Virus record (IMG/VR): IMGVR_UViG_3300023049_000574
Coordinates: 81,522 to 145,521 of that record
DNA length: 64,000 nt
Source: a virus
Strand: one strand, 5' to 3'
The translations under genes were made by a program, and so were the position numbers. Below are positions 5,059 to 60,663 of this stretch, piece after piece. Under the pieces are notes generated by a model. The model saw nothing but the letters and a program-made list of their open reading frames with translations. It did not search any database and was not told where the DNA came from. Position 1 is the first letter of the stretch, and each line of letters starts with the position of its first letter.

Positions 5059-6147
5059 ATGAGTAAAAAAATAAGCCCAATCGGTGATCCAACTCTAACC
5101 GATGTATTCGAAGAGGAATTACCTATCGAACAACGTGATAAAGAACAATATGATCTTATCATGCAACACACAAATTTCCCTAAGCCTAACAGTGTAATGA
5201 CTGCACAATTTTTAGGAAAGGACGAAACGCATTATTTACTTAATGCAAACTTAAAGGATGTAATCCGAGTTCCTGTTAACAGAAGTGAAAAGAAAATATT
5301 CTCTACCCTAGCGGAAGGATCTGATATCGATGTACTAGTTACAGGTATTTCAGATGATACCAATGAATATTCTATTAACGGAAGTGTTAGTCAGATTTAC
5401 CAAGAAAAAGCATTCCAAATCCTCAGAAACATAAATGATGATGAGTATGTAAGCGTTAATATCTTAGAACTTACTCCTGGTGGGTACAGATGTGAGATCA
5501 ACATGGAAAACTGCTTACTCGATGCGTTCTTACCACAGTTCTTAGCAGATGTGAATAAAATAAGAGACGAAGCTAAAGATAATTTAGTAGGGAACACTTA
5601 TAACATATGTATCGAAAGTTATTCAAGAGATAAGAGAACTTGGATTGTATCAAGAAGAAAATACTTGAAGCAACTTATTCCTTCTCACTTAAACGATCTC
5701 GATAAAGAAACTAACTATACAGGTCATGTTACAGGAACAGCACCATTTGGTATTTTTGTTCAATTTAACGAGTGTTTAACAGGATTGATTCATAGCTCTA
5801 ACCTTAATGATGATGTATTAGGAGAATTCGAAAACGGAAACATTAAAGCGGGTGATGAAATCACATTCAAAGTAAAAGATAAGTTGAATAAAAACAAGAT
5901 TATCTTAACACAAAAATCAACAGTTTCTTTTTGGGATACCATTGAGATAAACCAAGAAGTAGAGGCAGTGATCAAAGATCATAAACCTTTTGGGACTCTT
6001 GTGAATTTGGATAACGAAACCCTTGGGTTAGTTTATAAAAACGAACAAAGTGAACAAGTGTTAAGCCTGAAAAAAGGAGATCCTATTAACGTCAAGATCA
6101 TAAAATTTAATCGAGATAAAAGAGATATATTTTTATCAGTTATATAA
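5059..6147 (+). CDS. Ribosomal protein S1-like multi-S1-domain protein
   Basis: Repeated S1/OB motifs: GHVTGTAPFGIFVQFNECLTGLIHSSNL, IKDHKPFGTLVNL..GLVY, AFLP..., IVSRR. Confidence 0.8.
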   Translation: MSKKISPIGDPTLTDVFEEELPIEQRDKEQYDLIMQHTNFPKPNSVMTAQFLGKDETHYLLNANLKDVIRVPVNRSEKKIFSTLAEGSDIDVLVTGISDDTNEYSINGSVSQIYQEKAFQILRNINDDEYVSVNILELTPGGYRCEINMENCLLDAFLPQFLADVNKIRDEAKDNLVGNTYNICIESYSRDKRTWIVSRRKYLKQLIPSHLNDLDKETNYTGHVTGTAPFGIFVQFNECLTGLIHSSNLNDDVLGEFENGNIKAGDEITFKVKDKLNKNKIILTQKSTVSFWDTIEINQEVEAVIKDHKPFGTLVNLDNETLGLVYKNEQSEQVLSLKKGDPINVKIIKFNRDKRDIFLSVI

Positions 6148-7686: not shown

Positions 7687-8211
7687 ATGGATATTTTTCA
7701 TTTCATATTAGGTGTAATATTTGGCGCATCCGCAGTAATTGTTGGGATTTCTATTAATGTACATAGGTCAGAATATAAGAAATATGTGCTACCTTTTAAA
7801 AAATTAATCGGTGAGCATATATCTAGTTTTACATTCAACACGAGAGTAGCAAATTTAGTTTACTTCAACCATAAAGATTATACGGTTGTTCTAAACCTTA
7901 AAGAAAAAGAAGTTTACTTATACCAAGATACTACTATTATCGCAACTACTTTCAAAGAGAACACACAAGAAGTGAAGCATCTATATACTTTATTAGAAAC
8001 AGCATACCACGCAGATATTTATCTTAAGATTATTACAGCATCAAATGGTGTAGTAATGTCACAACCCAAGGAAACAGATGTTAGTAAGAAAGAGAAAGAA
8101 CATGTTCATACACCAAGCGTTGATGATATTTTAGATAAGATCAGCAAAGATGGGATGGATAGCTTATCTGAAATAGAATTAGAGATCCTTAAAAATAATA
8201 GTGATGATTAA
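7687..8211 (+). CDS. N-terminally membrane-anchored protein with C-terminal DUF6576-like motif
   Basis: N-terminal hydrophobic helix; VDDILDKISKDGMDSLSEIELEIL. Confidence 0.6.
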   Translation: MDIFHFILGVIFGASAVIVGISINVHRSEYKKYVLPFKKLIGEHISSFTFNTRVANLVYFNHKDYTVVLNLKEKEVYLYQDTTIIATTFKENTQEVKHLYTLLETAYHADIYLKIITASNGVVMSQPKETDVSKKEKEHVHTPSVDDILDKISKDGMDSLSEIELEILKNNSDD

Positions 8212-9020: not shown

Positions 9021-9079
9021 GTTGTTTATTATTTTAATTTATATATTAAAAGTAAAAGTTCATTTTTAATATATAGGGT

Positions 9080-22681: not shown

Positions 22682-23100
22682 TGAAAAGAATTTCACCAAA
22701 ATATATTAAAGAACTAAACGAAAACGAAATATTTGTTTTTGGTAGTAATGAGGGCGGTAGACACGGAAGGGGTGCTGCTAAGTTAGCCTTAGATCAATTT
22801 GGTGCTATATACGGACAAGCCGAAGGTTTACAGGGATCTTCATATGGTATTCCCACTAAAGACAAAACAGTAAAAATTACTCTTACTACAGAAGAAATCC
22901 AAAAGTATGTTGATAATTTTATTACCTTTGCGATTGATAACAACCATTTAATATTCCTAGTAACGGAAATAGGGTGTGGTTTAGCGGGGCATGATCCAAG
23001 AGACATTGCGCCTCTGTTTAAGAAAGTGAAAAGTGTAAAAAATATTTATTTACCCGAAAGGTTTTGGGATAATTTAGATCTCTATGAAAGTATATTATAA
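22681..23100 (+). CDS. Conserved phage protein, Macro-domain-like (FVFGSN family)
   Basis: FVFGSNEGGRHGRGAA...YGIPTK...FLVTEIGCGLAG. Confidence 0.65.
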   Translation: MKRISPKYIKELNENEIFVFGSNEGGRHGRGAAKLALDQFGAIYGQAEGLQGSSYGIPTKDKTVKITLTTEEIQKYVDNFITFAIDNNHLIFLVTEIGCGLAGHDPRDIAPLFKKVKSVKNIYLPERFWDNLDLYESIL

Positions 23101-23146
23101 AATAAAAGATGAGTTTTCGGAGTTAGATTTTTAAAAAAATAATAAT

Positions 23147-23154
23147 TATATTTG
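23147..23154 (+). promoter_or_regulatory. Bacteroidota-type -7 promoter box upstream of leader 1
   Basis: TATATTTG = TAnnTTTG. Confidence 0.55.
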
Positions 23155-23196
23155 CAAAATAATTAAACAAAAGACAAAAAGTTTTATATATAGAGT

Positions 23197-23256
23197 ATGA
23201 AAATAATTAATGTAAATAGTTCGGTATCACGTATAACTTCTAGGAGTAGAGGGTGA
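23197..23256 (+). CDS. Ser/Arg-rich leader peptide MKIINVNSSVSRITSRSRG (putative attenuator peptide)
   Basis: 19 codons with AGT, TCG, TCA, TCT, AGT and CGT, AGG, AGA; 3' end AGTAGAGGG is complementary to the terminator 5' arm. Confidence 0.8.
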   Translation: MKIINVNSSVSRITSRSRG

Positions 23257-23283
23257 TATTACTATGTACATAACTTATATAGG

Positions 23284-23315
23284 AAAAGCCTTCTACTTTA
23301 GTAGAGGGCTTTTTT
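23284..23315 (+). terminator. Attenuator-type intrinsic terminator before tRNA cluster 1
   Basis: GCCTTCTAC-TTTA-GTAGAGGGC followed by TTTTTT. Confidence 0.9.
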
Positions 23316-23324
23316 CATTTATAT

Positions 23325-23404
23325 GCTCCTGTAATCGGCTCTAGCTACGAACTAGATACCCGTAATCGGAATTGAAAATGTGGGTTCGAGTCCCCCCAGG
23401 AGTT
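23325..23404 (+). tRNA. Non-canonical D-armless tRNA-Arg(ACG)-like gene
   Basis: Acceptor GCTCCTG/CAGGAGT; anticodon arm TCTAG-CTACGAA-CTAGA; T loop TTCGAGT; only 8 nt between acceptor and anticodon arms; 23-nt variable segment. Confidence 0.7.
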
Positions 23405-23412
23405 CAAAACAC

Positions 23413-23501
23413 GGAGAGGTGGCAGAGCTTGGTTTATTGCACTAGTCTTGAAAACTAGCATACTGTAAAAGGTATCGAGGGTTCGAATCCCTCCCTCTCC
23501 G
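23413..23501 (+). tRNA. tRNA-Ser(TGA)
   Basis: GGAGAGG/CCTCTCC, CTAGT-CTTGAAA-ACTAG, long variable arm, GGTTCGAATCC, G73. Confidence 0.95.
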
Positions 23502-23506
23502 CAAAT

Positions 23507-23595
23507 AGTAGGGTGCATGAGTGGCTTAAGTGACTTGCTTGGAAAGCAAGTGATCGTGTAAAAGCGATCCGTGGGTTCGAATCCCACTCCTACTA
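23507..23595 (+). tRNA. tRNA-Ser(GGA)
   Basis: AGTAGGG/TCCTACT, CTTGC-TTGGAAA-GCAAG, long variable arm; atypical A1-U72 and A73. Confidence 0.85.
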
Positions 23596-23599
23596 CAAA

Positions 23600-23688
23600 G
23601 GTGAGTTGGCAGAGTGGACGATTGCGCTTGTTTGCTACACAAGTGATCGTGTAAAGGCGATCCGAGGGTTCGAATCCCTCACTCACCG
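23600..23688 (+). tRNA. tRNA-Ser(GCT)
   Basis: GGTGAGT/ACTCACC, CTTGT-TTGCTAC-ACAAG, long variable arm, G73. Confidence 0.92.
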
Positions 23689-24562
23689 CTAATAAACAAA
23701 AGGGTTATTATTGATATAATAATTAAAAAAGTAATGGGAAATAATATTAAAAAAATAGACATTAAAGAGTTTAGAGAAAAAGGATACTTACAAGAAGTTA
23801 ACCGTATGTTTTTACATCCATTGGGATTAGTATTATCAGTATCAGTTGATGATAATGCTAATGAAAAATTAGATGGTATTTGGGATTATAGAGATGATGA
23901 AGAAGGGATCATTTATGATATAGCTAACTCAGATACAGATAGACAAAATAGATTCAAAAAGAACATATCATTCATCAGCGATGAGTTAGAAGGAAGAAAG
24001 GAAAGGAGAAAGGAAATCCTTGGCTTCGATATAGAAAAAGTAAAATAGTTATGGAAGAGTATAATAAAAACACGTATGTTGAGAATATAAAGATACAAGG
24101 TTATCTCACTAAGGAATATGCTATTCATAAAAATGGGGAAGTTAGAGAAAAGATAGATCGTTTAATGGATGTAATTAACAACCAAAGAAAAGAAAGAGAT
24201 ATCGAGCGTTGGGAAAATCTTAATATGGAATTCAAAGAACCATGGGATGTTCCTTCGCTTCCGAGAGATGAAGAATTAATGAATAATTATGTAATTCCTG
24301 CATTATATAGATGTGGTGCTATAGCTAAAAAAGACTTAAAGAAAGACCATTATTATTTCGGGAAGTATAGAAACAGCAATTATGGTAAATGGAATGGTGA
24401 AAAATTTGAAATACAAAGATATGAATGGAATGTATTAGTTGATGATGATTGTTTTCACTTCGAAGACGATGACGGATTCGCATTATTTGTTCCTATAAGA
24501 GAGGTTACTGAAAAGGAATTCTTAGATAGAGAATTAAATATATAAGAAAAAGAACTTTTATA

Positions 24563-24982
24563 ATGAAGAAGATAAAGAATTTCGAAGATTTCATAAACGA
24601 ATCAATATACGGTGCTGACGTAGCCGATCCTATGGTAGAAAAAGAATGGGATGATCTATACGAAGAAGCCAAAGAAGAACCAATTAAATCTAAGATCAAA
24701 GAGATGTTAGTTGAGATATATAAAGATAAAGACACTTTAGTTAAAGTTGCAGACCTTTTTGAATGGAGTGATGGATCTAATGGTATCATTAACTTCAATG
24801 AATTAGACCACTTTTTAACAGACGTAGGATATAAATGCTACGCAGATGATCCTTCTAATATAGAAGACCTAGAAGATTTCAAAAAATGTATCCTATATGC
24901 ATATGCTTCTACGGATTTAGGATATAAAGGAGAAAAACATAGAGATCATCAATATGATCCTAATAACGAATTTTCTTGGTAA
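24563..24982 (+). CDS. Hypothetical protein with MKKIKNFE N-terminus
   Basis: MKKIKNFEDFINE. Confidence 0.55.
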   Translation: MKKIKNFEDFINESIYGADVADPMVEKEWDDLYEEAKEEPIKSKIKEMLVEIYKDKDTLVKVADLFEWSDGSNGIINFNELDHFLTDVGYKCYADDPSNIEDLEDFKKCILYAYASTDLGYKGEKHRDHQYDPNNEFSW

Positions 24983-25001
24983 TTTTTAGTACTTTTGTGT
25001 C

Positions 25002-25544
25002 ATGAACACAAAATACGTAGAAACTTATATTAATAATATTCCTTCAGACTTACCTAATATTATTAATTGGGAAGAAAGAGAAGATGCGCCTAGAAAGGAG
25101 ATTTTCATGGCAAATGAGGAATTGAGTTATACCTATGGTATGGGTAGAGGAATTAGAACATATGATTCTGTACCCATGATACCTTTTGTCAAGGATGTAA
25201 TGGATAAGATCAATTCGGATTATAACTATAACTTAGATATCTGTTTCTTAAATTATTATAAAAATGAAAAAATGTGGTTGGGTTGGCACTCTGATGACAG
25301 CCCTGAGATCGATCAAACTGAACCTATTGCGGTGGTCAGCATTGGCGCAGAAAGAGATATTTGGGTAAAGACTAAAGACTATAAAGGAGTCATTCCTGAT
25401 GAATGGAGATTTAACCTGAAAAGTGGATCTTTATTCATGATGTTAGCAGGATTTCAAGATAATCATTTACATAAAATTCCTAAATGGGATAAGAAATGTG
25501 ATTGGAGAACATCATTAACATTCAGGAAATATAAGAAAATTTAA
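25002..25544 (+). CDS. AlkB-family 2OG-Fe(II) dioxygenase
   Basis: LNYY...GWHSD...HKIPK...RTSLTFR. Confidence 0.9.
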   Translation: MNTKYVETYINNIPSDLPNIINWEEREDAPRKEIFMANEELSYTYGMGRGIRTYDSVPMIPFVKDVMDKINSDYNYNLDICFLNYYKNEKMWLGWHSDDSPEIDQTEPIAVVSIGAERDIWVKTKDYKGVIPDEWRFNLKSGSLFMMLAGFQDNHLHKIPKWDKKCDWRTSLTFRKYKKI

Positions 25545-26528
25545 TACTTTTTTCTTATATTTGTACCATGGACATACTATTAGACTACACAGGAGAGAAA
25601 GGAATCGGCTTTAAAGCTGCTAACTTTTACTTAGAAAACGATCAATCTATCTTCTTGTTAGGATATGATACGTTAGCTGATTTATATGTAGTGCTGAATA
25701 TCAAAGAGAATAACGAAAAGTTCTATTGGTGTCAATGTAAGATTTTCAGAGATGAGAAACACTATGAAGAAATCATCAATAATCTAACTCCCGATTCTTT
25801 ACATCAAGTGACTTCTGTATATCAAGATGGATATCCTGATGGGTTTTTTGATAACGTTAATAAAGTTAATTCACAGAAATTGGATTACTTCCTTACTGAT
25901 TCGACATTAGAACAATACAACTATCTAAAAGATGCGGATTTATATCTAGAACATAGTTATAGTAAGTAGAACTATTAAAACCAAGTTTATAATGTGTTTA
26001 AAGGTGATAATTTTTTGATTGGTAACAAGCATAAATTCAGGGAAGTAAAATGCTATGTTGATTAACTATTACTAATGTTTGAATATAAATAATAATGGTT
26101 ATATTTGTATAAATTATAATAAAAGGTGCAACATTATAATATAATAAACTTTATATAATATTATGACTTTTTTAACTTTTTTACACACATTAATAGATAT
26201 TTTCCTACTTATTGTAGCACCTTTGATGATACTTTCATACGAAGTATTAACGTTCAGTGATAAGATAATAGGAAAGACTAATGAGGACGGAGTAGTTTCG
26301 CCTTTTTATTCTATGTGCGAATCTATGTATTTGTTATGGATTGTAATGGCTTATTTGTTCTTAGAGAATAGAAACGCAGTAATAATATTAGTGTTAATCA
26401 GTATTTTAGGAATCTTCTTTGGGAAGTATAAAGCCTTTAATATCTTTGATAATATCTTATCTATAATAATAGTACTTTATGTAGTAATATTGAACTTTAA
26501 ATATTTTTAAACTAAGAACCTAGAAAAC

Positions 26529-27128
26529 ATGATTACAAGTATATCGAAAGAATTGAACCCAATTGAAATACCTTTCTTTGAGGGTGAGGTTAGTATGCTA
26601 CCTTTTGATTTAAGTGATTTATCAACTCTACCTATAGAGTTTAGACAGACAGCAAAACAAATGATTAAAAACTTACCGAATAAGGTAGGAGAGGCGTTCT
26701 TAACTATACATGGAAAGTTTGTTAAAAAAACTAAAACATTAAGACGTGGCGCACCCCATATCGATGGTAACTATTTAAAAGAAGTTGCTTCTTGGGGAAA
26801 TGGTGGTGGAAACGGATGGAAGGTCGGTGAAAATGGTATGCAGTTAACAAGTAAAGAACACGCTATTTCTTACGAGAATAAGAAAGGTGGGATGTTAATT
26901 GCTTCTGATTACTCGGCTTGTAAAGGATGGAATGGTGTATTTAATGATAAAGCAGGAGTCGGAGGCGATTGTAGCCATTTAAACTTAGATGATGGTTTTA
27001 TGTTAGAAGCTAATAAAGTATATTATAGTAACTCTCAGTTCGTACATGAAAGTCTACCATTAGATAAAGACGTACATAGAGTTATGTATAGAATCACATT
27101 ACCTATTGAACACGAATTTAAAGCATAG
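26529..27128 (+). CDS. Putative 2OG-Fe(II) oxygenase-fold protein
   Basis: PHIDG...VHES...R...R. Confidence 0.5.
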   Translation: MITSISKELNPIEIPFFEGEVSMLPFDLSDLSTLPIEFRQTAKQMIKNLPNKVGEAFLTIHGKFVKKTKTLRRGAPHIDGNYLKEVASWGNGGGNGWKVGENGMQLTSKEHAISYENKKGGMLIASDYSACKGWNGVFNDKAGVGGDCSHLNLDDGFMLEANKVYYSNSQFVHESLPLDKDVHRVMYRITLPIEHEFKA

Positions 27129-27488
27129 TAATATGAAAGTAACAATAGATAGAACGTTTAATTATGGTTTTAGGCAAATATGGCTCAGAAAGGATTTTGA
27201 GCTTCCCTACACCCCTTTCTATGGTATGTGGATCATAGATCAAGATAATGACCAAGAAATCAGTTTAGAACTAGTTAATAACAGCTATGTAGCTACTATG
27301 ATCAACTATTACCCAACAGAAGAAAAAACTACTATTGATATTAGGGAGGTTTGGAAACAGCCTGTAACAGAAGAAACAGTTGATGATATATTAGAAAGTT
27401 ATACTAAGGCGGGTTGGGAAAGAATGGATCTTACTGATGCTGAGGAAATGAAAGAATTTATGCACGAACAATATTTAAAAACCAAGTA

Positions 27489-28046
27489 ATGGGAAAATTA
27501 GACATAAGAATGGATGAAATACTTGATAGTATTTCTGAAAACGGAATAAATAATTTATCAAAAGAAGATAAGTTATTTTTAAAATATGAATCAGATGGAA
27601 TGGATTATCAAAGTATAATCTATAAAATACATATAGAACTTAATCCTAAAGCAGAAGAAGAAAGGAAGATTAGTAATGATATACTTAATATTTGTTTTCC
27701 TACTCCTGAGGAAGAAGGAACAACAGAGGATGAATTTCTTTATCGTTATAAATTGAGTGGTAAAATATATGCTTCTCTTGGTGAGAATTGGACTGAGGGG
27801 GAATATGATTTTAATTTAGGTCCTTCAACAACGAGAAACAAGTTGAGTGATGCTATTTTTATTGACGAATATTTAAAAGATATTTGCCGAAAAATAAACA
27901 TTAGTGAAAACACATTTGATGTTGGTATCGCTGAAAACGTTCATATGATATATGCTAATTCTGAGGACGAAGCTAAAAAAATAATTGGTCTTATTTTAAA
28001 GGAGATCAAAGCTGATGGATTTGAAATTGAATACGCAAAGACATGA
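27489..28046 (+). CDS. Hypothetical protein with N-terminal DUF6576-like motif
   Basis: MDEILDSISENGINNLSKEDKLFL. Confidence 0.55.
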   Translation: MGKLDIRMDEILDSISENGINNLSKEDKLFLKYESDGMDYQSIIYKIHIELNPKAEEERKISNDILNICFPTPEEEGTTEDEFLYRYKLSGKIYASLGENWTEGEYDFNLGPSTTRNKLSDAIFIDEYLKDICRKINISENTFDVGIAENVHMIYANSEDEAKKIIGLILKEIKADGFEIEYAKT

Positions 28047-28447
28047 TAAGAGAAGACTCAAAATATGTAGTTAAAGATCTTGGTTTAAAAGATATTGAAT
28101 ATTATGATGCTACTATCGATTATAAAACTAAACTAATCGCTTTGATTAAGTTTATCAGTGATAAAAAGGCTTGGTATTATATATGTGATGATTTTATTGT
28201 AGCTTATCATAAGAAAGAAGGTATAGTGATTAGTACAAGTGATGTAGTAGATTCGTTATCTATTCCCGATATTAGGAATAAGCTATCCCCTATTACACAT
28301 ATGATCTCTTTGTTGAAGATAGATAATTGTCCTCAGGGATATATTAAGGATTCAATTAAGTCAGCAGAGAAGGCAGTAAAAGATTTAGCACAGTTTTAGT
28401 AAACTTTTGATAAGTTTTTCAATAAGATATTTAAAAGAAATATAGAT

Positions 28448-29020
28448 TTGGAACTACTTATTATTACAGGAATGCCCTATTCGGGAAAAGGCACACAATG
28501 CGAATTTTTAAACGACTACTTAGGATATAAGCATATCTCTATGGGAGATGTTTGTAGAGCAGAAAAAGAAAAAGGAACAGAACTCGGTAGAATAATGTCT
28601 GAGTATCATGAAAAGGGTAACTTAGTTCCTAATAAATATATCGAAGAAATATTTGAAAATCTTATTATAGATAATATTGATGAAAAAGGAATCATCTTAG
28701 ATGGACACCCTAGAACACTTTCACAAGTAGATCAGATAGTTAGTATGATCGATAAAATTCACGTACAGAACGTAATCAATATTGATGTTGAAGAAACAAC
28801 TCTTTTAGAAAGAGCTAAAGAACGAGCTAAAAATTCTGATCGCCCTGATGATAAAAACCCCGCCATTCATCTAAAGCGAATAGAAGTATTTAAAGAAAGC
28901 ACTCTACCTGCAGTTGAATATATGAGTAAAATAATGCCATTTGTGAACATTGATGGTAATGGATCAGTTGAAGAAACAAGAGAGAAGATAAAAGAAAACA
29001 TATTTATCTTTGAGGATTAA
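28448..29020 (+). CDS. adk: Adenylate kinase family protein
   Basis: GMPYSGKGTQ P-loop, HISMGD..R, ILDGHPRT..Q, R.DD. Confidence 0.88.
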   Translation: MELLIITGMPYSGKGTQCEFLNDYLGYKHISMGDVCRAEKEKGTELGRIMSEYHEKGNLVPNKYIEEIFENLIIDNIDEKGIILDGHPRTLSQVDQIVSMIDKIHVQNVINIDVEETTLLERAKERAKNSDRPDDKNPAIHLKRIEVFKESTLPAVEYMSKIMPFVNIDGNGSVEETREKIKENIFIFED

Positions 29021-29030
29021 TATATACTCT

Positions 29031-29843
29031 ATGAAGTATATAAATAAATTCAATGAAAAGGTAACCGCAGCATTATTACCCACTGAACTAAGACATAAAA
29101 ACCTTTTATATCATTCTACTGATTTAGAATCATTTAAGAAAATCATAGAAAGTGATAAATTATACGGAACAGTTCAGTATGATTGGGGCATATCTACTTC
29201 TAGAAATAAACATTATGCTTTTGGGAGAAACGACACTGATTATGATGTGATACATGACGGTGGTGATGTTCAATTAATATTAGATCGAGATTTAGTTAAA
29301 AGACACCATAAAATAAAGGCTTATGATTGGGAAGAATTTAAAACAACTAAAGGTAAAACAGGTGTATATCATGATTATATACAAGCAGAAGATAAGATAT
29401 TAGCTAATTCATTAAAAAATGTAACGAAATATATAGTAGGTATTCATATAGTTAAAGACAAATTTATTGATGATATATTTGAAGACCCAATTATTAAAGA
29501 CAAACTTTTAAGTAAGGATATAGTTGTGTTTAATGAAGATTGGGAAATAATATTTAATAGCAAAGTTAAAAATACTGATACCGAATTCGAAAAAATTAAA
29601 GATTCTAAATTCAATAGATTACCTGATTTAACTTTATCGGAAATAGTAAATAATTGGGATGACGTTAAAGACATAGAAGATGATAATATTGAAACTATTA
29701 AATATTATGTAGACAACAAAGAACTATTACCTAAACAAATTCTAACATATGACAAAAAGGGATTATCTGATGGTTATCATAGACTGATAGCTATGAAGAT
29801 AGTAGGTGTAGATAAGTTTAGGTATAAAATTGATAATTGGTAA
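29031..29843 (+). CDS. Protein with MKYINKFNE N-terminus, ART-like and ParB-like motifs
   Basis: LYHST...ISTSR...; C-terminal LSDGYHRLIA; TAATATATA at 29018. Confidence 0.45.
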   Translation: MKYINKFNEKVTAALLPTELRHKNLLYHSTDLESFKKIIESDKLYGTVQYDWGISTSRNKHYAFGRNDTDYDVIHDGGDVQLILDRDLVKRHHKIKAYDWEEFKTTKGKTGVYHDYIQAEDKILANSLKNVTKYIVGIHIVKDKFIDDIFEDPIIKDKLLSKDIVVFNEDWEIIFNSKVKNTDTEFEKIKDSKFNRLPDLTLSEIVNNWDDVKDIEDDNIETIKYYVDNKELLPKQILTYDKKGLSDGYHRLIAMKIVGVDKFRYKIDNW

Positions 29844-29864
29844 TTAATTCTTATATTTGTTTTT

Positions 29865-30179
29865 ATGAAAGTATATATAGCAAGTCCTTACACTAAGGGC
29901 GACACTGCAATAAACGTTAAACGACAATTAGATACATTTGATATACTAATGGATAAGGGATATTTTCCTTTTGCTCCATTGTATAGTCATTTCCAACATA
30001 TGGCACACCCAAGACCATACGAAGATTGGATGACATATGATTTAGAATGGATATTAGTGTGTGATTGTGTACTACGTTTAGATGGCGAAAGTAGTGGTGC
30101 GGATAGAGAAGTCGCACATGCTAAAGAACACGGAATCCCCGTGTATTATTCATTAGAAGAATTATACGCAGCTACTTAA
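29865..30179 (+). CDS. Nucleoside 2-deoxyribosyltransferase-like (DUF1937/DUF4406-type) protein
   Basis: VYIASPY...CDCV..L..ESSGADRE...A...GIPV. Confidence 0.75.
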   Translation: MKVYIASPYTKGDTAINVKRQLDTFDILMDKGYFPFAPLYSHFQHMAHPRPYEDWMTYDLEWILVCDCVLRLDGESSGADREVAHAKEHGIPVYYSLEELYAAT

Positions 30180-31279
30180 TGGATCTAACTAAATATAATA
30201 ACGATCTAAGTGATGTCACTGATTATTTATCAGAACTAGGATTATCTAAGTTAAAGGATAAACATGATGGTAGATACAATAAATATAGTGTTCCTAAAGC
30301 AGACTTCGAAATACATGTATATAGTTTTATAAAGCAAGGTGACTCAGATTTATTTAAATATTGTGGTGATGAATTATTAACTTTAGATATTGTTAGAAGG
30401 TTCATGAATATAAGTCATGAAGAATCCAAAGAATTCACAAAAGATATTAAAAGAGATATCCATATCATTAATATAATACCTAAAGGATCTAGAGCAGGAA
30501 TGGTTACTATAACCAATCTAGAAGATTTAGATAACTACTTAGTGGAATATATTCCTTTTTATAAAAGGGATACTAGAATAAATAATATTTTAAAATTATA
30601 AATGGATTTTTTCAAATTAATTTCAAGAGAAAATGTAGGTAAGACTTTCCATATTAAGTTCTTACCCGCTATTGGATCAGATGATATAATAGATAACTAT
30701 CCTGTACCTTTTGGTAAGTATCATAAACAAATATACGTTTCTAATGCTATGGTTAACGGAGAGTTTAAACAACTTGTATATAATCAAGTGATGAGGGACT
30801 TTTTACAAATATTCTTTCTTGGGACGAGGGGATATATCATCCATCCTGATCCTGAAAAATTAGATTGTGATATAACATATAATCATCATAGAATAAATAC
30901 TACTCTTGAAAACGTATATTTAGATTTAGAGAATAGATATGATGTTACAAGAGATGAGTTAATATATGTTGACTATCCTGATAATGTACACCCATTTAAT
31001 ATATTATATCCTGCTAATAATGAATATATAATTAATCCTTATAGCTTTAAACTTACTGTAAGGGAGATAACTCTTTTTGGAACAAGTGGTTTATTAGATT
31101 TGGGAAAAATCGAAACGGTTAAATATGATCCTAATTTAATAATTAAAGATCAGAGTGATTCTACTATTAACGAAGCAAACGATTTTATGAAAAGCAAACC
31201 TAGTTTAGAAGGATTGGCTAAGTATTATGTGGAAGCATACCACAGAGATAAATTCATCGATGATGTTTTAGAAGGTTAA
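30179..31279 (+). other. Two hypothetical genes (30179-30601, 30602-31279) with C-terminal RDxKI-type motif
   Basis: End KRDTRINNIL and HRDKFIDDVL. Confidence 0.5.
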
Positions 31280-31524
31280 TTAGAATAAGATATGATGAAA
31301 AAGATACTATTAAAAAATATCTTAAAAATTTATTGAATATTAAATAAATTTTCTTATATTTACAGTCCTAATAAAAAGAGGTAAAGTAGAAACTTCTTAT
31401 TCTGACTTTTTAATAAGGAGGAATATTGTATAGAATGCTAGAGTAAACTAGAAATCTCTTTTTATTTTTAAACTTTATTATATTTACATCCTATAAGGAG
31501 AAGAAAACTTTTATATATACAACA

Positions 31525-31596
31525 ATGACAACATTAAATAACATAGCAATTATAGCGAGAGCGAGAGCTTTTAACAGACCCCGAATTGGAGTGTGA
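31525..31596 (+). CDS. Ile/Ala/Arg-rich leader peptide MTTLNNIAIIARARAFNRPRIGV (putative attenuator peptide)
   Basis: ATA GCA ATT ATA GCG AGA GCG AGA GCT run; 3' end CCGAATTG is complementary to the terminator 5' arm. Confidence 0.8.
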   Translation: MTTLNNIAIIARARAFNRPRIGV

Positions 31597-31620
31597 CTAT
31601 AATTAATATGTCAATTTTTA

Positions 31621-31658
31621 AAACCTCAATTCGGATTTCCGAGTTGAGGTTTTTTTTT
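31621..31658 (+). terminator. Attenuator-type intrinsic terminator before tRNA cluster 2
   Basis: CCTCAATTCGG-ATTT-CCGAGTTGAGG followed by 9 T. Confidence 0.92.
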
Positions 31659-31698
31659 GTTATAGATCATCGGGTCGCAAATTGCGACCACAATAAAT

Positions 31699-31775
31699 AC
31701 TGACGTATCCCCGATGTCTTATATACATCATGAAGGTAGCGGTTGAAAACGTGGGTTCGAATCCCACCGTCAGTA
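31699..31775 (+). tRNA. Non-canonical D-armless tRNA-Ile(TAT)-like gene
   Basis: ACTGACG/CGTCAGT; GATGT-CTTATAT-ACATC; GTGGG-TTCGAAT-CCCAC; 7-nt linker in place of a D-arm. Confidence 0.7.
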
Positions 31776-31783
31776 CAAAATAT

Positions 31784-31863
31784 GCATCAGTATCCGAGGG
31801 GAGCTTCTAACTCCTTATCCGTAATTGGAGATGAAAATGTAGGTTCGATTCCTATCTGGTGTA
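31784..31863 (+). tRNA. Non-canonical D-armless tRNA-Arg(TCT)-like gene
   Basis: GCATCAG/CTGGTGT; GGGAG-CTTCTAA-CTCCT; GTAGG-TTCGATT-CCTAT; 8-nt linker. Confidence 0.7.
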
Positions 31864-31873
31864 CAAATTTTAT

Positions 31874-31948
31874 GGGGTGTAGCACAGGCGTAGCCTAAAT
31901 CGTTTGCAACGATTTCAGAACAACAGGGTTCGATTCCCTTACACTCCA
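31874..31948 (+). tRNA. tRNA-Ala(TGC) with aberrant D-arm
   Basis: GGGGTGT/ACACTCC with G3:U70 and A73; AATCG-TTTGCAA-CGATT; T loop TTCGATT. Confidence 0.75.
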
Positions 31949-31954
31949 CTAAAT

Positions 31955-32031
31955 GGTTCGGTAGCTTAATTGGATAAAGCAATCGGTTTCTAACCGATAG
32001 AGTGAGAGTTCGACCCTCTCCCGAATCACCA
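31955..32031 (+). tRNA. tRNA-Arg(TCT), canonical, CCA encoded
   Basis: GGTTCGG/CCGAATC, D-arm GCTT-AATTGGATA-AAGC, ATCGG-TTTCTAA-CCGAT. Confidence 0.95.
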
Positions 32032-32038
32032 AATATAT

Positions 32039-32101
32039 GGGGGTTTAGCTCAGTCTGACCGTAAGCGGCACATTTGCAATGTGCGTCACACATCGATTCG
32101 A
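32039..32101 (+). pseudogene. 3'-truncated tRNA-Ala(TGC)
   Basis: 5' half and GCACA-TTTGCAA-TGTGC intact; sequence breaks at TTCGA with no 3' T-stem or acceptor strand. Confidence 0.7.
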
Positions 32102-32696
32102 AGAAGTGTAAAAATATAGAATATGAAAATGAAACTAAAAATACTAACGTTAGATGAACTAAAAGAAAGAATTAAAACATTCGATAAAAAATATGGAAAA
32201 TATTATGAAAAAGAATAACAATAACTTAGGAGGACACCGCTACCAAGCATTGATACTCGACACCAAAGGAAACTAAAGAAATATTCTAAGAACTTCTTAG
32301 AGATGTTTAACTTTTTCCTCAATAGTCATAGGAATGGGATATTAACCTTTTCGGGAACAAATGATTTCAGTGTCGAGTATAAACAAGATGGATATGATAG
32401 TAGGTTATGTTTTAGGAAGTTTGATAATGGTGATTACCAAAACAAAGTTGTACATACTAAACACCCTAATATACTATTTAGTGTAATTAAAGGAAAGAAG
32501 TCATGGGGTCTATTTGTTAATGAATGGTCAGATGGAATCGTTGAATCTAGCTTTACTATCGATGAAATTAAAACAGTATTCGATGAACAGAATATCAAAG
32601 TTCCCGATCCATTATGGAAAGACTTTTTAAACACAATTGGTAGAAAGAAAAGGATAAGAAATCAAAAATACTACAATGAGCTTATTAAAAATAGTA

Positions 32697-47752: not shown

Positions 47753-50350
47753 ATGGAAGATACTTTAAACGAAAGAAAAAGAAAAGAAAACGAGATGAAA
47801 AAAGAATTAACAATTTTTACAATAGAAGAAATTATGGAATCAAGTATTGATTACTTCGATGGTGATCAATTAGCAGCACAGGTTTGGAAAAACAAATATG
47901 CATTAAAAGATTCAGATGGAAACATTTATGAGAAAAATCCTGATATGATGCATGATAGAATTGCATCTGAGATATACAGAATGGAACAGAAGTATGATAA
48001 CCCAATGGAGTTAGAACAAATAAAAGGGCTTATCAAAGATTTTAAATATATTATACCACAAGGTTCACCAATGAGTGGAATTGGTAACAATTTTCAAAAA
48101 GTATCATTATCAAACTGTTTTGTGATCGGTGATGATGGAAAGGATTCTGATTCGTATGGTTACATTATGAAGACTGACGAAGAACAAGTTCAGTTAATGA
48201 AAAGACGTGGTGGTGTTGGACATGATTTATCTAACATTCGACCAAAAGGAAGTGCTGTTAAGAACTCAGCTTTAACTTCAACAGGTGTTGTTCCATTTAT
48301 GGAAAGATATTCAAACTCTACAAGAGAAGTAGCACAGGACGGTAGACGTGGTGCATTAATGTTGAGTATATCTTCTAAGCATCCTGATTCGGAAGCATTT
48401 ATCGATGCTAAATTAGATGGCACTAGAGTAACAGGTGCTAACATTTCAATTAAAGTACATGATGACTTTATGAAGGCTGCAACTAAAGGAACACCTTATA
48501 CACAACAGTATCCAATTTATTCGGATAATCCAAAAGTAACTAAGGAAGTTGATGCACAAGCTATTTGGAAAAAGGTAATTCATAATGCTTGGAAATCAGC
48601 AGAACCTGGGGTATTGTTTTGGGATAAAATTATATCAGAATCACTAGCAGATTGCTACGCAGACTTAGGGTATGAAACAGTATCTACTAATCCATGTGGT
48701 GAGATACCTTTATGTCCTGACGATAGTTGTAGACTATTAGCAATCAACCTATATTCATATGTAGAAAATCCTTATACCGATAAAGCAAAATTTAACTTTG
48801 GGTTATTTAAGGAACATGCTAAATATGCAACAAGAATGATGGATGATATCGTGGATCTTGAAGTAGAAAAGATTGATGGTATTTTAGAAAAGATCCAAAG
48901 TGATCCTGAGAAAGATACTACTAAGAGAACTGAGTATGAGCTTTGGAAAAGAATCCAAAAGAAATGTCAAGAAGGTAGAAGAACAGGTATTGGTATTACT
49001 GCAGAAGGAGATATGTTAGCCGCATTAGGACTTACATATGGCACTAAGAAAGCAACTAGTTTTGCAACTAAAGTACATAAGACTTATGCTATCGAAGTAT
49101 TCAGATCTTCTAACCAATTGGCACAAGAAAGAGGAAGTTTCAAAATTTGGGATGCTAAGAGAGAACAAGATAACCCAATCTTAAATAGAATTAAAAAAGA
49201 AGATCCTGAGTTATACGAAAACTTAATGAAGTATGGTAGAAGAAATATTGCTCTTTTAACTATTGCACCAACAGGATCTGTTAGTATTATGACACAAACT
49301 AGTTCGGGGATTGAGCCTGCGTTTATGGTAGCCTATAAAAGAAGAAGAAAGATCAACCCAAATGATAAAGATGCTAGAACAGACTTTATCGATGAGGTAG
49401 GTGATCATTGGGAAGAATATAATGTATTCCACCACGGCTTTGAGAGATGGATCAAAGCAACAGGTCATAAATTCCTTACTAAGAAGGAGAAGGAAACGAG
49501 ATTAGAAAATCTTCCTGATGAAACTATTGATAAATTAACTAAGAAGTCTCCTTATTATAAAGCGATGGCTAATGATGTTGATTGGGTAGAAAAAGTGAGA
49601 ATGCAAGGTAAGATTCAAGAATGGATAGACCACTCTATTTCAGTAACGGTTAATTTACCTGAGCATGTATCAGAAGAATTAGTGAATGATGTATATGTTA
49701 CGGCTTGGAAAGAAGGTTGTAAAGGATGTACTATCTATCGTGACGGATCTCGATCAGGTGTATTAATTAACAAAGAAGAAAAGGAAAAACAAGCTTTGTT
49801 CGAAGACGTTAATGCTCCAAAAAGACCTAAGACCTTAGATTGCTCAGTAATGACTTTCCAAAATAAAGGAGAGAAATGGATTGGTTTCTTAGGTTTATTA
49901 GACGGAAGACCATATGAGATCTTCACAGGCGCACACGATAATTTCCCAATTCCAAGTTATGTAGAAGAAGGAAAAATCGAGAAAGTTAAAGTGAACGGAA
50001 ATGGATCTAATTACAACTTCATCTATAAAGATAAAACAGGAACAGAAATCACTATTCCTAATCTAAATCACGCATTTGAGGAAGACTATTATGATTTAGC
50101 TAAGACCTTCTCAGCTATATTAAGACATGGTATGCCACTTACTTATGTAGTAGAATTAATCGATGGTCTAAACTTAGACGGAGATTTGATAACTACATGG
50201 AAATCAGGTGTTAAACGAATGATCAAAAAGTTCATCAAAGATGAAACTAAAGTATCAGGGAAAACATGTAAAGAATGTGGATCAGAATCGTTGGAATATA
50301 AAGAGGGCTGCCTTACGTGCCTGAATTGTGGAAATTCAAAATGTGGATAA
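47753..50350 (+). CDS. nrdJ: Class II (adenosylcobalamin-dependent) ribonucleotide reductase
   Basis: SNCFV, GGVG, RRGALM, TNPCGEIPL, TIAPTGS, YRDGSR, C-terminal CxxC...CxxCG.SKC; no NrdB nearby. Confidence 0.93.
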   Translation: MEDTLNERKRKENEMKKELTIFTIEEIMESSIDYFDGDQLAAQVWKNKYALKDSDGNIYEKNPDMMHDRIASEIYRMEQKYDNPMELEQIKGLIKDFKYIIPQGSPMSGIGNNFQKVSLSNCFVIGDDGKDSDSYGYIMKTDEEQVQLMKRRGGVGHDLSNIRPKGSAVKNSALTSTGVVPFMERYSNSTREVAQDGRRGALMLSISSKHPDSEAFIDAKLDGTRVTGANISIKVHDDFMKAATKGTPYTQQYPIYSDNPKVTKEVDAQAIWKKVIHNAWKSAEPGVLFWDKIISESLADCYADLGYETVSTNPCGEIPLCPDDSCRLLAINLYSYVENPYTDKAKFNFGLFKEHAKYATRMMDDIVDLEVEKIDGILEKIQSDPEKDTTKRTEYELWKRIQKKCQEGRRTGIGITAEGDMLAALGLTYGTKKATSFATKVHKTYAIEVFRSSNQLAQERGSFKIWDAKREQDNPILNRIKKEDPELYENLMKYGRRNIALLTIAPTGSVSIMTQTSSGIEPAFMVAYKRRRKINPNDKDARTDFIDEVGDHWEEYNVFHHGFERWIKATGHKFLTKKEKETRLENLPDETIDKLTKKSPYYKAMANDVDWVEKVRMQGKIQEWIDHSISVTVNLPEHVSEELVNDVYVTAWKEGCKGCTIYRDGSRSGVLINKEEKEKQALFEDVNAPKRPKTLDCSVMTFQNKGEKWIGFLGLLDGRPYEIFTGAHDNFPIPSYVEEGKIEKVKVNGNGSNYNFIYKDKTGTEITIPNLNHAFEEDYYDLAKTFSAILRHGMPLTYVVELIDGLNLDGDLITTWKSGVKRMIKKFIKDETKVSGKTCKECGSESLEYKEGCLTCLNCGNSKCG

Positions 50351-59556: not shown

Positions 59557-60663
59557 TTATGTAAAAAGTTTAGTATTTTCTATAATACCACCAACTAAAA
59601 TCATATTATCTTTATATACGACTGCAGATTGACCCTTAGCAGTAGCATTAAAACGATCAGAAGTATATACATCAAAACCATCATCCTTTAAGTGAATTCT
59701 ACCATTAATAGCATCACCCGTTGATCTAACTTTAACAGATACTTCTTCTCCATCAACGATGTTTAACATATAATTAGGATCTTTGGCTACAATGACATTC
59801 CTTTCTAAATCTTTTCTACGACCTAGATAAATCTTATTTGTATCAGGATCTATACGTGTTATGTATACGGGGTAACCTAAAGCTACACCTAATCCCCTTC
59901 TTTGTCCAATAGTATAAAAAGGATGACCCTTATGTTTCCCGACAACCTTATCATTCTCAAAGAATTCGCCACCGTCTAATTTAGATAGATCAGGATTCTT
60001 TCTTAGTAAGAAATTGTCTTGTGTTCCATCCATATCAACAAAGCAGATATCAGCACTTTCAGACTTATTAACTATATCAGTTAATCCTCTTTTAGCTGCC
60101 ATCCATTTTACGTCTTCCTTTAAATATTCACCTAACGGAAATAATGTTTTTGAAAGATCATTTTGTGATAAATTCCATAAGAAATATGTTTGATCTTTAG
60201 TAGTATCTTTGGGTGTACCGATACTATACTTACCATCCTTTTCGATGATCTTAGCATAGTGTCCTGTGGCTACATAATCACAATTTAGTTTATCGGCAAT
60301 TTCCATCATAGACCCCCACTTCACATGTTTATTACACATAACACAAGGATTAGGGGTATTGCCGACACTACTGTTATTTACGTAGTCATCGATCACATAT
60401 TTAGTAAATTCTTTGGTAAGATCCACAAGATTAAATGGGAAATCATATTCTACTGATATGTTTCTAGCATCATTAACATCATCTAAGTTACAACACTTAG
60501 TTGAACTCATATTAGATGTTAGTTGTAGTCTTTCTTCACCAAGCTTTAACATAACACCAATTACATCTGCACCTGCTTCTTGTAATAAGATAGCAGCCAT
60601 AGATGAATCGATTCCACCTGACATTCCAACTAATACTTTTTTATTTTCTAAATTAGGTAACAT
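59557..60663 (-). CDS. mnmA: tRNA 2-thiouridylase MnmA
   Basis: SGGIDS, TPNPCVMCN, ATGHY, KDQTYFL, ES.DICF, YTIGQRRG, GQSAV.Y. Confidence 0.95.
   Translation of the reverse strand: MLPNLENKKVLVGMSGGIDSSMAAILLQEAGADVIGVMLKLGEERLQLTSNMSSTKCCNLDDVNDARNISVEYDFPFNLVDLTKEFTKYVIDDYVNNSSVGNTPNPCVMCNKHVKWGSMMEIADKLNCDYVATGHYAKIIEKDGKYSIGTPKDTTKDQTYFLWNLSQNDLSKTLFPLGEYLKEDVKWMAAKRGLTDIVNKSESADICFVDMDGTQDNFLLRKNPDLSKLDGGEFFENDKVVGKHKGHPFYTIGQRRGLGVALGYPVYITRIDPDTNKIYLGRRKDLERNVIVAKDPNYMLNIVDGEEVSVKVRSTGDAINGRIHLKDDGFDVYTSDRFNATAKGQSAVVYKDNMILVGGIIENTKLFT

Follow-up and report, generated by a model that had tools for sequence, protein, structure and literature searches.

A putative leader-peptide attenuator that may couple transcription of phage tRNA genes to the decoding of their cognate codons

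Leader peptides that attenuate the amino-acid operons of enterobacteria can be multivalent: thrL senses Thr and Ile, and ilvL senses Ile, Leu, and Val. Other enterobacterial leaders are trpL, hisL, pheL, and leuL. Transfer RNA (tRNA) genes, on the other hand, are usually treated as constitutive or as controlled by growth rate. Here, we analyze a 64-kilobase (kb) stretch of phage DNA (referred to as the window), which is the final part of the 145.5-kb IMG/VR virus genome IMGVR_UViG_3300023049_000574, and in which two short open reading frames (ORFs) are each followed by an intrinsic terminator and a tRNA cluster. The usual targets of leader-peptide attenuation, i.e., genes for amino-acid biosynthesis, transport, or aminoacyl-tRNA synthetases, were not what stood behind these terminators; tRNA genes lie directly behind both of them. 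We consider it highly probable, on the basis of sequence comparison and RNA folding, that such a unit is a ribosome-mediated (leader-peptide) transcription attenuator feeding back on tRNA supply. The observations bearing on this are the anatomy of the units, the alternative pairings of their RNA, the position of the codons, and the covariation of these codons with the anticodons downstream. A search of the literature on leader peptides and attenuation in combination with tRNA genes, operons, clusters, or phage gave no description of tRNA genes controlled by attenuation, in agreement with a preliminary description of the first unit, made from the DNA sequence by itself, which knew of none.

The preliminary description proposed a 19-codon ORF in front of a terminator and an Arg/Ser tRNA cluster. 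This ORF (leader 1) is present, and folding, ARAGORN, and Rfam bear out a terminator followed by genes for Arg(ACG)-like, Ser(TGA), Ser(GGA), and Ser(GCT) tRNAs (unit 1; Table 1). Between the T-run of the terminator and the first tRNA-like gene lie 9 nucleotides (nt), so that a separate promoter driving the cluster, which the preliminary description had named as an argument against attenuation, finds no room there. Leader 1 holds the codons CGT, TCA, TCG, TCT, and AGT (twice), i.e., cognate codons of the downstream tRNAs, and among these TCG (0.36%) and CGT (0.25%) are rare phage-wide. The earlier claim that the leader has cognate codons for every tRNA is thus correct as to their presence, but only the first four of them (23218-23232) are in a sensing position by the modeling described below. 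Among the 662 ATG-initiated ORFs of 15-30 codons in the 145-kb genome, leader 1 alone combines Ser codons at 5/19 or more with Arg codons at 3/19 or more. The same 145 kb contain about 10 strong terminators. The genome has just two tRNA clusters, and each has one of these terminators upstream on the same strand, at 9 and 46 nt, respectively.

The end of leader 1 carries AGTAGAGGG (23245-23253), which duplicates the 3' arm of terminator 1 and can pair with its 5' arm within a helix of 12 base pairs (bp), as had been predicted at the outset. The same AGTAGAGGG also pairs locally with CTTCTA (23238-23243) in an upstream hairpin; this hairpin is part of the minimum-free-energy fold of 23190-23322, which has z = -5.4 relative to shuffled sequences. 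In the predicted folds, leader 1 RNA shows the full 1:2, 2:3, and 3:4 topology of classical (trp-type) attenuators, with 2:3 as the antiterminator and 3:4 as the terminator. Folding supports the trp/his-type logic that had been suggested for this locus, but that suggestion overlooked the 1:2 hairpin, which supplies the anti-antiterminator. Because the equilibrium fold of the full leader always favors the terminator and cannot discriminate between states, folding was done on nascent RNA ending at the terminator loop, in which the footprint of a ribosome was masked for every A-site codon in turn. With the A site at any codon of leader 1 up to CGT at 23230, i.e., including AGT, TCG, TCA, and CGT, the probability of the antiterminator, P(antiterminator), was 1.00; it was 0.54 at ACT (23236), 0.08 at TCT (23239), and 0 past 23239. 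In leader 2, the ORF of the second unit, it was 0.90 for A sites from 31531 to GCT at 31567, 0.23 at 31570, and 0 past 31570. By the same modeling, TCT, AGG, AGT, and AGA (23239-23250) serve the structure of regions 1 and 2 and are not sensors.

In both units, the run of cognate codons ends at the very point from which a stalled ribosome would mask region 2, which is the geometry expected if a stall leads to read-through and completed translation leads to termination. Computationally, the antiterminators of both units are mutually exclusive with their terminators, exposed by a stalled ribosome, and masked when the ribosome is near the stop codon. Mask folding therefore reproduces the ribosome logic put forward in the preliminary description, in which an early stall on Ser/Arg codons leaves the antiterminator free. 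The same parts might follow another logic, in which translation of the leader is a timer or couples transcription to translation (for example, if a ribosome close behind RNA polymerase is needed) and the codons only set its speed. The polarity of the switch comes from folding alone and the untranslated state of leader 1 is ambiguous (P(2:3) = 0.72), both of which would suit such a timer. However, the cognate codons end at the onset of region 2 masking not only in both window units but also in most of the other loci described below, as predicted if stalling causes read-through, and we regard the timer as very unlikely.

The steps that we infer, i.e., translation of the leader, read-through decided by a stall, and a physiological trigger, would run as follows. 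Transcription would start upstream of the short ORF, and the nascent RNA would form either the terminator (3:4) or the antiterminator (2:3), the latter by pairing of the last leader codons with the 5' arm of the terminator. Slow decoding by Ser(GCU), Ser(UGA), or Arg(ACG) tRNA would make the ribosome pause on AGT, TCG, TCA, or CGT; the paused ribosome would cover region 1 and leave region 2 free, the antiterminator would form, and RNA polymerase would enter the tRNA genes. With fast decoding, the ribosome would reach the end of the leader and mask region 2, and the terminator would form 9 nt before the first tRNA gene. The unit would thereby make the same tRNAs whose decoding it tests, and so form a negative-feedback loop on tRNA supply.

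The only other tRNA cluster of the genome (Ile/Arg/Ala, 31525-32031 including the leader) has the same design as unit 1. Its leader core, I-A-I-I-A-R-A-R-A, stands before genes for Ile(TAT), Arg(TCT), Ala(TGC), and Arg(TCT) tRNAs, and leader 2 is the sole short ORF among the 662 in which Ala and Arg each make up 4/23 or more of the codons. Its terminator is the strongest in the genome scan. The Rfam tRNA scores are 35.5 bits for the Ile(TAT)-like and 33.0 bits for the Arg(TCT)-like gene, both above the gathering score, and 66.9 bits for tRNA-Arg(TCT), while only ARAGORN called tRNA-Ala(TGC). In sequence, the two leaders have little in common beyond TTTTATATATA upstream of the ATG. The tRNA-Ala(TGC) gene (31874-31949) has an odd anticodon position in the ARAGORN call and only a 16-bit match to the clan of transfer-messenger RNA in Rfam; the alanine identity pair G3-U70 is present. 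After tRNA-Arg(TCT), 32040-32125 holds a degenerate tRNA-like remnant with a D-arm-like start and an anticodon loop TTTGCAA (Ala-TGC-like), without a T arm or the 3' strand of the acceptor.

The codon/anticodon correlation in homologous loci had been set beforehand as a test of the proposal. Flanking proteins led to no direct orthologue of leader 1: the upstream protein (PHROG 2072, widespread) gave 80 loci at ≤60% identity with the Ser cluster in none of them, and the downstream protein gave a single locus (L082), also without the Ser cluster. The sample used instead comprised 110 IMG/VR loci picked by the motif of odd, non-cloverleaf tRNA-like genes such as those of the window, a choice that is independent of the leaders. 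A blind pipeline clustered the tRNAs, kept the clusters with a terminator ≤60 nt upstream, and chose as leader the longest ORF that stops shortly ahead of this terminator, which yielded 37 terminator-preceded clusters with 31 non-redundant leaders. Leaders containing PQPMQDQD, PQPQDQD, and PQPQVDIDQD precede Gln/Pro/Asp clusters, YYYEVE precedes a Tyr/Glu cluster, SSSSSSRSS an Arg(TCG)-like/Ser/Ser cluster, LRILPAHRP a Leu/Pro/His/Arg cluster, and IIGNGAIAGGG an Ile/Gly/Gly/Ala/Ala cluster. The amino-acid match between leader and cluster was 0.33, compared to 0.188 +/- 0.017 for permuted clusters, and 0/20,000 permutations reached it. At the codon level, the match in the 10 codons before the modeled switch was 0.425 versus 0.142 +/- 0.032 when permuted (0/20,000), and after the switch it was 0.144. 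When each of 10 independent cluster classes was represented once, the match was 0.60 versus 0.21 +/- 0.06, a value reached in 0/200,000 permutations. A search with a Ser(TGA) pattern added two further loci (L204 and L209), whose leaders, MKTILNILPSILRPSIRRS and MINISNILPSSLRPSIRRS, are rich in I, L, P, S, and R and stand before Ser, Arg, Pro, Ile, Met, and Leu tRNAs.

The cognate match is also specific to the reading frame, being 0.425 in frame 0, 0.117 in frame +1, and 0.131 in frame +2, which argues for translation and against direct pairing of the RNA with tRNA. Such pairing would be the basis of T-box-like sensing, in which codon-like triplets of the leader bind the anticodons of free tRNA without a ribosome; output and sensed molecule would both be tRNAs, and the choice between terminator and antiterminator is common to T-boxes. 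However, the T-box covariance model (RF00230) gave no match at E up to 10 in 23000-23800, nor at E up to 5 in 31280-32140, and a T-box is much longer than the leader. Each leader contains several different triplets; they are enriched only in the frame set by the ATG and closed by the stop codon, and they lie at ribosome-footprint distance from region 2, all of which makes direct sensing extremely unlikely. The frame-specific signal and the permutation result bear equally on a constitutive, leaky terminator that would set a low, fixed tRNA level or end the upstream operon, the ORF being untranslated or encoding an unrelated micro-protein. Terminator 1 is indeed the first terminator after the upstream gene (end 23100). 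Neither the composition of the ORF, unique among the 662 short ORFs, nor the conserved spacing of stop codon and terminator (21-35 nt in most loci) would be expected from this, and the antiterminator complementarity recurs across loci despite their unrelated sequences; a leaky terminator is in our view highly improbable.

Phages with more than one unit allow the comparison to be made within a single genome. A leader fits its own cluster better than the other one in 17/19 comparisons (p=3.6e-4), both window leaders included, and phage-wide codon bias is therefore not the cause of the match. The same result bears on the possibility that unit 1 is a genuine leader-peptide attenuator gating the downstream protein genes (23734-31279) under general shortage of amino acids or charged tRNA, with the tRNAs riding along. 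In favor of such gating, the tRNA cluster has no terminator behind it, and the 17 ORFs that come next share its strand. However, the identity of the adjacent tRNAs is mirrored by the leader codons from one locus to the next and also inside a single phage, which is needless for a general starvation sensor; a sigma-70-like promoter match (23693-23720) lies between the tRNAs and the next gene; and the units of other phages stand before clusters whose neighbors differ. Gating of the protein genes is thus very unlikely.

A cultured example is provided by Maribacter phage Panino (PP540027.1, locus L195; host Maribacter halichondriae), which carries two such units. In the first, the box TATATTTGCA is followed by the leader MKTQRLHQELEQPTNIGRDFYGVDGY, which opens with MKTQRLHQELEQP, by a terminator, and by Pro, Glu, Gln, His, Leu, Leu, and Arg tRNA genes. 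In the second, TATATTTGCA lies upstream with a 50-amino-acid ORF in between, and the leader MRAATGIAIIGRTKDKPLGRISVL, which opens with MRAATGIAIIGRTKDK, precedes a terminator and Ala, Lys, Ile, and Gly tRNA genes. The box upstream of both Panino leaders is identical to that at 23147 in the window. The paper on Panino gives its tRNA count and nothing on tRNA regulation. The Panino record labels as hypothetical proteins both 5307-5402, the first leader ORF, and 8000-8107, a non-cloverleaf Arg(TCT)-like tRNA.

Several points weigh against a feedback attenuator of this kind. In leader 1, only four codons are in sensing position, one for each anticodon class (two for TGA), and the codon TCT for Ser(GGA) sits at the edge of the sensing zone (P=0.08). 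The ribosome-free nascent ensemble at equilibrium gives the antiterminator with P=0.72 in leader 1 and P=0.41 in leader 2. With this much antiterminator at equilibrium, termination of untranslated RNA would rest on the kinetic priority of the 1:2 hairpin, which is made earlier; such hairpins exist in both units (dG -17.8 in unit 1 and -18.5 in unit 2). There is no terminator between the upstream gene and leader 1 and none after the tRNAs, and transcripts that read through may extend into the downstream genes as well. The Rfam tRNA threshold is not reached by the Arg(ACG)-like gene, a predicted tRNA whose aminoacylation is putative. Finally, the host is a putative one of Bacteroidota type, suggested by the promoter-like box and by weak matches to Bacteroides phages.

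Table 1. Features of the two units, with positions counted from the first nucleotide of the window; dG, predicted free energy.
Feature	Position	Strand	Basis or value
Promoter-like box of unit 1, TATATTTGCA	23147-23156	+	Fits Bacteroidota -7 consensus TAnnTTTG; putative function
ATATATA-N4 start-site signature ATATATANNNNATG, abutting the leader 1 ATG	23186-23196	+	Motif enrichment at gene starts
Leader ORF 1, 19 codons + stop, MKIINVNSSVSRITSRSRG	23197-23256	+	ATG 23197, TGA 23254-23256
1:2 hairpin of unit 1 (predicted anti-antiterminator); inner stem CUUCUA 23238-23243 with UAGAGG 23247-23252	23210-23271	+	dG -17.8
Predicted sensing codons AGT TCG (GTA) TCA CGT, cognate to Ser(GCT), Ser(TGA), Arg(ACG)-like	23218-23232	+	Mask folding
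Region 2 of unit 1, predicted 5' strand of antiterminator, partner 23288-23299	23243-23254	+	12-bp helix, dG -20.7
Intrinsic terminator 1 (regions 3:4) with T-run 23310-23315	23282-23315	+	15 pairs, 4-nt loop, dG -19.1 kcal/mol
tRNA-Arg(ACG)-like gene, non-cloverleaf, without D hairpin	23325-23404	+	Rfam tRNA 24.6 bits; missed by ARAGORN
tRNA-Ser(tga)	23413-23502	+	ARAGORN; Rfam 56.9 bits
tRNA-Ser(gga)	23507-23596	+	ARAGORN; Rfam 47.4 bits
tRNA-Ser(gct)	23600-23689	+	ARAGORN; Rfam 54.9 bits
Promoter-like box of unit 2, TATATTTACA	31479-31488	+	TATATTTRCA motif
Leader ORF 2, 23 codons + stop, MTTLNNIAIIARARAFNRPRIGV	31525-31596	+	Short-ORF survey
Predicted sensing codons of leader 2, ATA GCA ATT ATA GCG AGA GCG AGA GCT	31543-31569	+	Mask folding
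Region 2 of unit 2, partner 31623-31634	31581-31592	+	9+2 bp, dG -12.4
Intrinsic terminator of unit 2, 9-T run	31620-31658	+	dG -21.2
tRNA cluster of unit 2: Ile(TAT)-like, Arg(TCT)-like (both non-cloverleaf), then tRNA-Ala(TGC), tRNA-Arg(TCT)	31699-32031	+	Rfam, ARAGORN
Ile(TAT)-like gene, non-cloverleaf	31699-31775	+	Missed by ARAGORN
Arg(TCT)-like gene, non-cloverleaf	31784-31863	+	Missed by ARAGORN

The three non-cloverleaf genes of the window are members of a phage family of which the 110 IMG/VR loci hold about 100 distinct elements. These have 7-8 nt at the place of the D arm, a segment of 21-25 nt after the anticodon arm that ends in TGAAAAY, and anticodons that are almost only Arg (TCT, TCG, ACG) and Ile (TAT, GAT); in the three window genes the segment measures 21-23 nt. 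In the Arg(ACG)-like gene of unit 1, the acceptor, anticodon (ACG), and T arms are present, with an anticodon loop CTACGAA, and 5 nt replace the D arm in the alignment to the tRNA family (RF00005); it is because of the missing D hairpin that its score stays below the gathering score of 29. Across the family, a 3-bp helix wraps the anticodon arm; it joins three bases of the 5' linker to the three that immediately precede a D-loop-like TAR..GG motif. When the register was counted from the anticodon stem (an earlier, fixed register showed no signal), this wrapping helix was found to covary: a perfect 3 bp is formed in 57% of elements, with 15 different pair combinations, versus 7.5% with shuffled partners. 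The Arg(ACG)-like gene of the window fits it, pairing linker CGG with CCG. Leaders carry ATA, AGA, and CGT in sensing position when non-cloverleaf genes follow, which suggests that these tRNA-like genes decode.

Both window leaders have a TATATTTRCA box 37-41 nt upstream. This motif occurs 7 times in the window, compared to 1.6 expected (1100, 12739, 18021 on the minus strand, 18464, 23147, 31355, and 31479), and is a putative promoter. The box at 31355, a further TATATTTACA, opens a segment (31355-31470) just upstream of the unit 2 promoter-like box, in which about 110 nt with hairpins and a T-rich end follow and no leader-like ORF is seen; it may be a small RNA or a decayed unit. The ATATATA-N4 signature occurs 14 times versus 1.29 expected (e.g., at 9069, 11277, 33518, 35889, and 38226), and 12/13 of the matches other than that at leader 1 lie exactly on the ATG starting an ORF of at least 90 amino acids, or in frame near the start of one. 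ATATATA-N4-ATG thus appears to be a start-site signature, and possibly a promoter for leaderless or very short-leader mRNAs. An ORF of 26 amino acids that runs across terminator 1 (23264-23344) was dismissed, as it is without the start signature. Most leaders (L098, L106, L118, L138, L147, L155, and the window) begin alike, with an A-rich motif M-[KRT]-[TN]-x-N-[LVN]-N-[IM] that is independent of the tRNAs behind them, and this suggests common descent or a requirement of translation initiation. Elsewhere in the window, a QueC-like gene of queuosine biosynthesis (59557-60663, minus strand; PHROG 1741, E=1e-72) could be read as another sign of phage investment in tRNA function, and 47753-50350 (plus strand) encodes the large subunit of ribonucleotide reductase (PHROG 84).

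Beyond the single unit, we think it likely that Bacteroidota-type phages run a product-sensing tRNA homeostat, in which each block would be transcribed only when its own codons are decoded slowly, and would top up the tRNAs that have become limiting through mismatch with host codon usage or through host anticodon nucleases. The leaders would then also record which non-cloverleaf Arg and Ile tRNAs decode. If true, tRNA transcription would respond to feedback from individual codons, which would be a new principle in the regulation of the translation apparatus and a direct answer to the question of why and when phages express their own tRNAs. For annotation, a leader would predict what the cluster behind it decodes, even where gene finders miss a tRNA. 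The cultured pair of Panino and M. halichondriae makes the idea directly testable, and the units, being compact, could serve as parts for reporting or controlling how much of a specific tRNA is available.

Among described systems, T-boxes resemble the proposed units in that the state of specific tRNAs is what they respond to, by choosing between a terminator and an antiterminator; they differ in that they bind the tRNA directly, without translation, and mostly control synthetase and amino-acid genes of Firmicutes, whereas the signal in the phage leaders is frame-specific. Searches with cmscan gave low scores for the leader families of Rfam (Bacteroid-trp, RF01692, 26.1 versus a gathering score of 49, E=1.7; Thr_leader, RF00506, 20.9 versus 55; Phe_leader, RF01859, 21 versus 55). 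These and the other weak matches, to the PyrR site and the L10 leader, are far under the gathering scores, driven by the terminator hairpin, and were rejected as chance. The Bacteroid-trp leader itself shows that leader-peptide attenuation occurs in Bacteroidota, the likely host phylum, with another target and other codons. The pheM leader of pheST is similar in being a leader-peptide attenuator of a component of the translation apparatus; however, it is bacterial, it responds to a single amino acid, and its output is a synthetase protein, whereas the output of the phage unit is tRNA. Attenuators of the thrL/ilvL type are similar too: as predicted for the phage units, a short leader with a cluster of regulatory codons is translated, the 1:2, 2:3, and 3:4 pairings exclude one another, a terminator stands before the regulated genes, and one leader senses several amino acids. 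The units of the window differ from these in being phage-borne, in that their leader codons are picked by anticodon (ATA for Ile-UAU, AGA for Arg-UCU) and not only by amino acid, and in that their targets are tRNA genes, so that the product itself would be tested and the feedback on decoding capacity would be direct.

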